Sequence record: AB218927.1
DNA: 853 bases
From: a phage
Reading direction: 5' to 3' (one strand)
Below the pieces are notes generated by a model, which did no database searches, was not told the origin of the DNA, and worked only from the letters and a program-made list of their open reading frames with translations. The translations under genes and the position numbers were made by a program. The stretch's first letter is position 1. Each line of letters starts with the position of its first letter. Positions 1 to 853 of this stretch are shown here, piece after piece.

Positions 1-27
1 TTCGAGCTCGGTACCCGGGGGCGCGCC
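1..27. other. Cloning-vector polylinker, 5' flank: SacI GAGCTC 4-9, KpnI GGTACC 10-15, SmaI/XmaI CCCGGG 14-19, AscI GGCGCGCC 20-27
   Basis: Directly read restriction-site string TTCGAGCTCGGTACCCGGGGGCGCGCC, identical to the EcoRI-proximal end of a pUC19/pNEB193-type multiple cloning site as I recall it. The phage-derived sequence begins immediately after the AscI site. Confidence 0.85.
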
Positions 28-28
28 G

Positions 29-79
29 CTTCACTTAGCGAATGCATTAGCCTTAATCAACCAACGCCTGAAAAGGTAA
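29..79 (+). CDS. 3' end of maturation (A) protein gene, 5'-truncated at the cloning junction (C-terminal residues LHLANALALINQRLKR, stop TAA 77-79)
   Basis: Open frame from the insert boundary to TAA at 77-79, ending 16 nt before the coat ATG, which is the expected position for the A-protein terminus in levivirus gene order (mat-coat-lysis-rep). I cannot confirm the C-terminal residues from memory, so this call is positional. Confidence 0.45.
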   Translation, partial: LHLANALALINQRLKR

Positions 80-83
80 TTAC

Positions 84-87
84 GGAG
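84..87 (+). promoter_or_regulatory. Shine-Dalgarno-like GGAG for the coat gene, 8 nt upstream of ATG 96
   Basis: GGAG at 84-87 with appropriate spacing to the coat start codon. Confidence 0.5.
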
Positions 88-95
88 TTAGCCAT

Positions 96-488
96 ATGGC
101 AACTTTACGCAGTTTCGTACTCGTCGATAATGGCGGTACGGGGAATGTTACTGTCGTTCCTGTTAGCAATGCCAACGGCGTCGCTGAGTGGCTTTCTAAT
201 AACTCGCGCAGTCAAGCTTATCGCGTGACTGCCAGTTATCGTGCGTCAGGCGCGGACAAGCGCAAATACACCATCAAACTCGAAGTACCGAAAATCGTTA
301 CTCAAGTTGTTAATGGTGTCGAGCTGCCTGTTTCCGCATGGAAGGCTTACGCCTCTATTGACCTGACCATCCCTATCTTTGCTGCAACCGATGATGTGAC
401 CGTTATTTCCAAGTCACTCGCCGGCCTGTTCAAAGTTGGGAACCCTATCGCTGACGCTATCTCTTCTCAGAGTGGCTTCTACGCGTAA
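96..488 (+). CDS. cp: Coat (capsid) protein of a GA-type group II ssRNA coliphage, complete, 130 aa
   Basis: Translation MATLRSFVLVDNGGTGNVTVVPVSNANGVAEWLSNNSRSQAYRV...TIPIFAATDD...GNPIADAISSQSGFYA matches the phage GA coat protein as I recall it, nearly residue for residue. It also shares the conserved levivirus coat motifs seen in MS2 (FVLVDNGGTG, ANGVAEW, NSRSQAY, ELTIPIF, GNPI). ATG 96, stop TAA 486-488. Confidence 0.95.
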   Translation: MATLRSFVLVDNGGTGNVTVVPVSNANGVAEWLSNNSRSQAYRVTASYRASGADKRKYTIKLEVPKIVTQVVNGVELPVSAWKAYASIDLTIPIFAATDDVTVISKSLAGLFKVGNPIADAISSQSGFYA

Positions 489-679
489 TGGGTCTGAAAG
501 CAAAGCATAAGGAAAACCTATGTTCCGATTCACAGAGATCGAAAAGACTCTATGTATGGATCGCACTCGCGATTGTGCTGTCCGATTTCACGTCTATCTT
601 CAGTCACTGGATTTGGGGTCTTCTGATCCTCATTCTCCGGACTTTGATGGACTTGCCTACCTTCGTGATGAATGTTTAA
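488..679 (+). CDS. L: Lysis protein L (single-gene lysis protein), complete, 63 aa; start ATG 488-490 overlaps coat stop TAA 486-488
   Basis: The ORF sits in the position of levivirus L, spanning the coat-replicase junction in a third frame. It has a basic N-terminal region (KAKHK...RSKR) followed by a hydrophobic transmembrane-like segment. RSKRLYVWIALAIVLSDFTSIFS aligns with MS2 L RSSTLYVLIFLAIFLSKFTNQLL, including the conserved Leu-Ser dipeptide (codons at 578-583). Confidence 0.85.
   Translation: MGLKAKHKENLCSDSQRSKRLYVWIALAIVLSDFTSIFSHWIWGLLILILRTLMDLPTFVMNV
504..524 (+). promoter_or_regulatory. Translational operator RNA hairpin (coat-protein binding site) containing the replicase start codon
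   Basis: AGCAUAAGGAAAACCUAUGUU folds as follows: upper stem G511-C518 and G512-C517, 4-nt loop AAAA (513-516), bulged A510, lower stem A509-U519, U508-A520, A507-U521, C506-G522 (plus G505-U523 and A504-U524). This has the same architecture as the MS2 operator ACAUGAGGAUUACCCAUGU, with the replicase AUG (520-522) in the 3' arm of the lower stem and the SD-like AGGA in the 5' arm and loop. Confidence 0.8.
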
Positions 680-810
680 CTAAACATCCCTCACTTGGAG
701 ACAGTAATTCGGACGCACGCCGTAAGGAATTGGCATATGCCAAACTTATGGATAGTGATCAAAGATGCAAAATCCAAAACAGTAACGGATACGACTACTC
801 TCATATCGAG
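520..810 (+). CDS. rep: RNA-dependent RNA polymerase (replicase beta subunit), N-terminal ~97 codons, 3'-truncated at the insert/vector junction
   Basis: ATG 520-522 lies 6 nt after GGA 511-513. Translation MFRFTEIEKTLCMDRTRDCAVRFHVYLQSLDLGSSDPHSPDFDGLAYLRDECLTKHPSLGDSNSDARRKELAYAKLMDSDQRCKIQNSNGYDYSHIE aligns with the MS2 replicase N-terminus (SLCIDLPRD; GSGDPHSDDFTAIAYLRDELLTKHPTLG; AIAKLREANDRC). The frame has no stop through position 853, so it is absent from the supplied ORF track. Phage-derived sequence ends at about 810. Confidence 0.9.
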
Positions 811-853
811 TTAATTAAGTCTAGAGTCGACTGTTTAAACCTGCAGGCATGCA
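811..853. other. Cloning-vector polylinker, 3' flank: PacI TTAATTAA 811-818, XbaI 820-825, SalI 826-831, PmeI GTTTAAAC 833-840, SbfI 840-847 / PstI 841-846, SphI 847-852
   Basis: Directly read string TTAATTAAGTCTAGAGTCGACTGTTTAAACCTGCAGGCATGCA. The order PacI-XbaI-SalI-PmeI-SbfI/PstI-SphI, together with AscI on the other flank, matches the pNEB193 (pUC19-derived) polylinker as I recall it. Confidence 0.85.

Follow-up and report, generated by a model that had tools for sequence, protein, structure and literature searches.

How a coliphage with an RNA genome comes to be represented by DNA that is framed by restriction sites, and whether this DNA is a natural locus or a laboratory product, is the question raised by this sequence. 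The stretch analysed, here called the window, is 853 nt long and constitutes the entire source sequence. The genomes of Fiersviridae are single-stranded RNA without a DNA stage, so a DNA copy of such a genome must be cDNA. We consider it highly probable that the window is a laboratory-made cDNA segment of a GA/BZ13-type RNA coliphage with vector ends, generated by directional cloning between AscI and PacI. It consists of 27 retained vector bases on the left, a 783-nt insert (28-810), and 43 vector bases on the right. The window is an ordinary cloning product, and a native DNA locus is ruled out.

The insert (28-810, plus strand) derives from a group II F-specific RNA coliphage (Emesvirus japonicum), as seen both in megablast searches and in alignments. 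When searched against 50,697 phage records, it returned six matches, all of them genogroup II F-specific RNA coliphages and each covering at least 98% of the query. Identity amounts to 98.1% with BZ13 strain DL20 and 96.8% with GA (both at 100% coverage), 96.8% with BZ13 FJ483837, 91.1% with FJ483838, and 89.4% with KU1, a range of 89-98% over the six group II records. In genome coordinates, the insert corresponds to nt 1250-2032 of the 3458-nt DL20 genome and to nt 1257-2039 of GA. A preliminary description of this DNA had named GA, KU1, JP34, BZ13 and their relatives as genomes with which to compare positions 28-810, and GA, KU1 and BZ13 are indeed among the group II coliphages matched.

The genes on the insert all lie on the plus strand. 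The 3' end of the maturation (A) gene, comprising 16 codons (LHLANALALINQRLKR) and a TAA stop, occupies positions 29-79 by translation, and the DL20 coding sequence ends at nt 1301, which is equivalent to window position 79. The coat gene (96-488, 130 aa; Pfam Levi_coat, E = 1.6e-38) is complete, as is the lysis gene in the +1 frame (488-679, 63 aa; Phage_MS2_lysis, E = 3.3e-7). A488 is common to the lysis ATG and the TAA stop of the coat gene, and the lysis gene overlaps the start of the replicase gene. The replicase (beta subunit) is represented by its 5' part (520-810, 97 of 532 codons; RNA_replicase_B, E = 2.6e-23), which aligns to profile positions 12-92 of 540. The gene, which spans nt 1742-3340 in DL20, is incomplete in the window because it is cut off by the cloning junction. 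All three domains score above the Pfam cut-offs and, together with the identity to DL20, bear out the earlier statement that the insert encodes levivirus genes. Their arrangement, maturation, coat, overlapping lysis, and replicase, matches that of Emesvirus japonicum.

The limits of the phage sequence are sharply defined. An alignment of the whole window to the corresponding regions of DL20, GA, and two Logan contigs, which are natural metatranscriptome sequences, shows that phage-like identity spans exactly 28-810 and collapses at 27/28 and at 810/811. At the left junction, GCTTCAC is preceded by ACTTAGTGG in the phage genomes and by GGGGGCGCGCC in the window. At the right junction, the phage genomes continue from CATATCGAG into AGTGGCG (GGTGGCG in a Logan contig), and the window continues from the same CATATCGAG into TTAATTAAG. 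The first phage base, position 28, adjoins an AscI site (GGCGCGCC, 20-27), and the last, position 810, adjoins a PacI site (TTAATTAA, 811-818), so that the earlier claim of a phage segment at 28-810 bounded directly by these two sites is exact to the base. According to the site map, neither AscI nor PacI cuts inside the insert, and GGATCC occurs nowhere in the window, which agrees with the reported absence of BamHI. The missing BamHI site and an insert free of AscI and PacI sites fit directional AscI/PacI cloning of an RT-PCR product. Beyond the right junction, the truncated replicase frame that opens at 520 runs on for 14 codons into the polylinker (LIKSRVDCLNLQAC) and stays stop-free up to position 853. 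Automated gene prediction could report a phage-vector fusion ORF at 520-853, in which the 14 extra codons are an artefact.

The flanks themselves have the composition of a cloning-vector polylinker. The left flank (1-27, plus strand), which shows no similarity to phage genomes in the alignments, contains the last three bases of EcoRI (TTC), followed by SacI (from 4), KpnI (from 10), SmaI/XmaI (from 14), and AscI (20-27). The right flank (811-853, plus strand) contains PacI (811-818), XbaI (from 820), SalI (from 826), PmeI (from 833), SbfI (from 840), PstI (from 841), SphI (from 847), and the first A of HindIII. The record thus begins at the TTC of EcoRI (1-3) and ends at the first A of HindIII (853); the depositor seemingly retained nearly the whole EcoRI-HindIII polylinker interval instead of trimming it to the insert. 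Ten 6-bp palindromes fall within the 70 flank bases, where about one would be expected by chance (binomial P = 3e-8), and ten are found in the 783-nt insert, where 12 would be expected. Bases 1-20 and 839-853 are exact substrings of the 57-mer polylinker of pUC19, and 820-831 corresponds to its XbaI-SalI part; 55 E. coli records, from plasmids or engineered chromosomes, contain the 57-mer at 100% identity. The flank segments follow pUC19 in order and orientation (EcoRI-SacI-KpnI-SmaI, then XbaI-SalI, then PstI-SphI-HindIII), with three added 8-base sites at the positions that they hold in pNEB193 (AscI at 20, PacI at 811, PmeI at 833).

The flanks are therefore a pUC19 polylinker with three added 8-base sites, and their site set and order are as reported for pNEB193. 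This substantiates the earlier assignment to a pUC/pNEB193-style polylinker. Both flanks equal what we take to be the pNEB193 polylinker exactly, minus a GGATCC between AscI and PacI. The location of this BamHI site in pNEB193, which had also been assumed in the preliminary description, is presumed here and agrees with published site orders. In the literature, pNEB193 is described as a small plasmid from NEB that serves as the unit-definition substrate for PacI, and papers place AscI, SbfI, BamHI, and HindIII sites in it, as well as sites for KpnI, EcoRI, SalI, XbaI, BamHI, PacI, PstI, and PmeI. [quoted passage not shown] When the literature was searched for polylinker strings, two sources matched. 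One is a Toxoplasma primer for another vector, with AscI, BamHI, and PacI in the same order; the other is a set of published primers annealing to the laboratory vector pCG1, which spell window positions 820-853 plus the next AAG of HindIII. The literature on site content and order, taken together with the agreement between the flanks and the presumed polylinker, points to pNEB193 as the probable vector. Derivatives, or other vectors with the same polylinker parts, are further candidates, and pCG1 has the right half.

Searches of natural sequence collections yielded no counterpart of the flanks. No occurrence of the 33-mer 820-852 came up in 596 Gb of contigs from bacterial and archaeal genomes, in the IMG/VR viral contigs, or in the JGI metagenome contigs. 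A search with the whole window found no match to the flanks in PLSDB, and the right flank (811-853) has no match in complete E. coli genomes. The lack of any match across these genome, viral, metagenome, PLSDB, and E. coli collections indicates that the right-flank sequence is not natural. A pattern for the native polylinker, with AscI and PacI separated by 0 to 30 bases plus the flanks, likewise gave zero matches in the genome and metagenome contig collections.

The insert, in turn, is unmodified natural phage sequence. Its differences from the four relatives compared are almost all synonymous: synonymous and non-synonymous codon differences stand at 15:1 against DL20, and at 25:1 and 20:0 against the two Logan contigs. 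This pattern indicates a natural isolate under purifying selection and not a designed or recoded sequence. Five public contigs encode the identical coat protein. They are levivirus genomes or genome fragments of 1.8-3.4 kb in the order maturation-coat-replicase, and no cellular DNA was found in any of the five, so that contiguity of 28-810 with cellular DNA, which the preliminary description had held incompatible with a cloned cDNA, was looked for and did not appear. Where the window switches to polylinker, the natural contigs continue as phage sequence.

Some local features of the insert deserve separate mention. Its first 187 nt (28-214) are identical to GA, and all 25 differences from GA lie at or after 215; this identity, in an insert closer overall to DL20, may be ordinary mosaic variation among group II strains. 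A primer origin of the leftmost 25 nt of the insert, raised by their agreement with GA where DL20 differs, was considered and set aside; the window equals GA over the whole of 28-214, so that this agreement is uninformative about primers. A natural NdeI site (CATATG, 93-98) that GA, DL20, and the Logan contigs share overlaps the start codon of the coat gene. Further inside the insert lie a HindIII site (214-219) and a second NdeI site (734-739). These NdeI and HindIII sites are natural coincidences and were not engineered.

At the protein level, the insert can be connected to named isolates. The coat protein is identical at every residue to BAE54353.1 and BAE54362.1, and the lysis protein is identical to BAE54354.1, P34702 (JP34), and ACT66727.1 (DL20). 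BAE54353.1 and BAE54362.1 are named for Enterobacteria phage TL2 and are grouped under Escherichia phage BZ13 in UniRef Q2V0U3. BAE54353 and BAE54354 are consecutive accessions, which suggests one nucleotide record encoding both coat and lysis proteins. An exact look-up in the protein collection gave no deposited counterpart of either the partial replicase or the maturation fragment. From these protein identities, we think it somewhat better than an even chance that the window is linked to the BZ13/TL2 coat/lysis deposit; most likely, the insert is the coat/lysis-region clone that was deposited for isolate BZ13 or TL2. The BAE54353.1 series of BZ13/TL2 entries presumably stems from Nishihara et al. 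(Microbiol Immunol 2006), a work that reportedly deals with the coat and lysis genes of group A RNA phages. BZ13, TL2, and JP34 were isolated from sewage in the surveys that Furuse et al. conducted in Asia. A literature search returned no usable paper linking pNEB193 to RNA coliphages.

The insert also retains RNA structures of the phage. A hairpin at the end of the coat gene (454-478, plus strand) corresponds to the GA feature at 1683-1707 (offset 1229), annotated in GA as a potential control structure of the lysis gene; its predicted fold has an energy of -8.4 kcal/mol with a weak z-score of -1.98. The translational operator hairpin of the replicase, the coat-protein binding site, lies at 504-524 on the plus strand (GA feature 1733-1753). 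It comprises a bulged A510, an AAAA loop (513-516), and the replicase AUG (520-522) in the 3' arm, and it is predicted to fold as in GA (-4.9 kcal/mol, z = -3.1). A scan against Rfam yielded no family at E <= 1; the operator hairpin falls short of a scorable length, and Rfam may have no model for it. Within this operator, the window carries G at position 505, where all four relatives compared (DL20, GA, and the two Logan contigs) carry A. With this exchange, the second pair of the stem, counted from its foot, turns from A-U into G.U at unchanged predicted energy, and the affected lysis codon still specifies Lys (AAA to AAG), so that the change is synonymous there. A505G could be a natural variant or an error of RT-PCR or cloning. 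That the insert faithfully copies a natural group II isolate with G505 in its replicase operator appears improbable to us; if the variant is real, it could slightly alter the repression of replicase translation by the coat protein.

We postulate the following origin for the window. RNA of a group II F-specific coliphage (BZ13/GA type, Emesvirus japonicum) would have been reverse-transcribed, and 783 nt from the end of the maturation gene to replicase codon 97 would have been amplified with primers bearing 5' tails, AscI on the forward and PacI on the reverse primer. The cut product would then have been ligated directionally, AscI to PacI, into a pUC19-derived polylinker of the pNEB193 type, and the small AscI-PacI stuffer holding BamHI would have been lost through this ligation. 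The outcome would be a laboratory-made, double-stranded plasmid DNA. Finally, the clone would have been read from the vector and the read retained from near EcoRI to near HindIII, which would explain why 27 and 43 vector bases remain. Most likely, the window is a sequencing clone of a natural sewage isolate, the vector ends of which were left untrimmed on deposit.

The orientation of the insert bears on the purpose of such a clone. In pUC-type vectors, the lac promoter and lacZ-alpha read from the HindIII side, opposite to the EcoRI-to-HindIII strand. Past HindIII, pUC19 continues with the lac operator and the start of lacZ in reverse complement, a sequence that matches the native lac region of 4,845 E. 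coli genomes. In the window, the phage sense strand lies on the EcoRI-to-HindIII strand; given the pUC19 layout, the phage genes are antisense to the vector lac promoter, which argues against an expression construct. For an insert that includes a lysis gene, the antisense orientation would be fitting. NZ_OZ369440.1 (E. coli strain Esc28 plasmid 5) was considered as an annotated pUC plasmid for the orientation of lacZ-alpha and was rejected on account of its different synthetic context. At 1740-1880 of the locus examined there (L003), a pUC19 polylinker lies between NotI sites, and the 3.6-kb plasmid, which belongs to a RefSeq 'complete genome', contains cat together with a fragment that bears the annotation of a Cas9 PAM-interacting domain. 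The cat gene, the Cas9 fragment, and the NotI-bounded polylinker identify it as an engineered laboratory plasmid among E. coli genome records.

Other origins for the window can be envisaged. The DNA could be a purpose-built construct, namely a qRT-PCR standard, a positive-control plasmid, an expression clone, or an infectious-clone intermediate, possibly gene-synthesized. Such a construct would have the same physical structure, with the insert in a polylinker, and the complete coat and lysis genes as well as the natural NdeI site at the coat ATG (93-98) would be in keeping with it. A full-length infectious clone, however, contains a complete genome of ~3.4-3.5 kb with exact ends and a promoter, and the insert, at only 783 of ~3,460 nt, excludes this use and makes infectivity impossible. 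The window contains no promoter and no vector backbone, no promoter or tag has been added to the insert, and the phage sense strand runs opposite to lacZ-alpha transcription as known for pUC19. In addition, the encoded proteins are identical to entries under the names of natural isolates, and the variation is natural and synonymous. We therefore regard a purpose-built construct as improbable, and an expression clone or a synthetic standard is probably not what was intended. The description of the window as a synthetic construct accordingly stands insofar as it is a cloned cDNA, whereas the purposes proposed with it, a standard, an expression clone or an infectious-clone intermediate, are disfavoured by the size of the insert, its antisense orientation, and its natural-isolate proteins.

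Two further explanations would dispense with a clone altogether. An in-silico chimera, in which vector contamination was joined to phage reads without any physical clone, draws some plausibility from the general experience that vector contamination of assemblies is common. Against it, both junctions lie exactly at intact 8-base sites, and the vector pieces are the two sides of one polylinker in one orientation, from which only the AscI-PacI stuffer is missing. This pattern is the signature of a ligation and not of a random in-silico join, and we consider a chimera very unlikely. Still further removed is a native DNA locus, in which levivirus sequence was inserted, after reverse transcription, into the genome of a bacterium, a plasmid, or a DNA phage and the likeness to a polylinker arose by chance. 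Nothing speaks for it except that the window is given as DNA. It is contradicted by the density of restriction palindromes in the flanks (ten in 70 bases, with three 8-base sites and in pUC19 order), by zero matches of the 33-mer 820-852 in 596 Gb of genome contigs as well as in viral and metagenome contigs, and by the lack of flank matches in PLSDB and of right-flank matches (811-853) in E. coli genomes. Moreover, all natural contigs with the identical coat protein are plain levivirus genomes. A native DNA locus is thus effectively refuted, and we assign it next to no probability.

The cloned cDNA of a natural isolate combines already known biology with a routine cloning artefact, and nothing in the window is novel. 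Its practical value lies in data hygiene, as a flag for vector contamination. Vector left untrimmed in a public phage entry could give rise to spurious 'phage' matches, and masking of bases 1-27 and 811-853 should precede comparative, context, or motif analyses of any kind. The preliminary description had gone further and held any reading of genomic context to be wrong. This is correct for the flanks; the segment 28-810, on the contrary, preserves the gene order, the overlaps, and the RNA hairpins that the native phage has. The insert can be treated like any ordinary part of a GA/BZ13-type genome, and the phage part adds nothing to what is known of GA/BZ13-type coliphages.

Compared with known systems, the window combines a familiar vector with a familiar phage. 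Its flanks resemble pNEB193, which New England Biolabs derived from pUC19 by adding AscI, PacI, and PmeI to the polylinker, in site set and order, but the window holds only 70 nt of vector and no backbone with lacZ-alpha, bla, or the ColE1 origin. When compared at the protein level, its coat (130 aa) and lysis (63 aa) proteins equal the deposited BZ13/TL2 proteins. The insert shares its gene order, the TAATG overlap of coat stop and lysis start, and the operator hairpin with both Escherichia phage BZ13 strain DL20 (FJ483839) and Enterobacteria phage GA (X03869), from which it differs at 15 and 25 positions, respectively, nearly all of them synonymous. Unlike the DL20 and GA genomes, the window covers 23% of a genome and exists as DNA.
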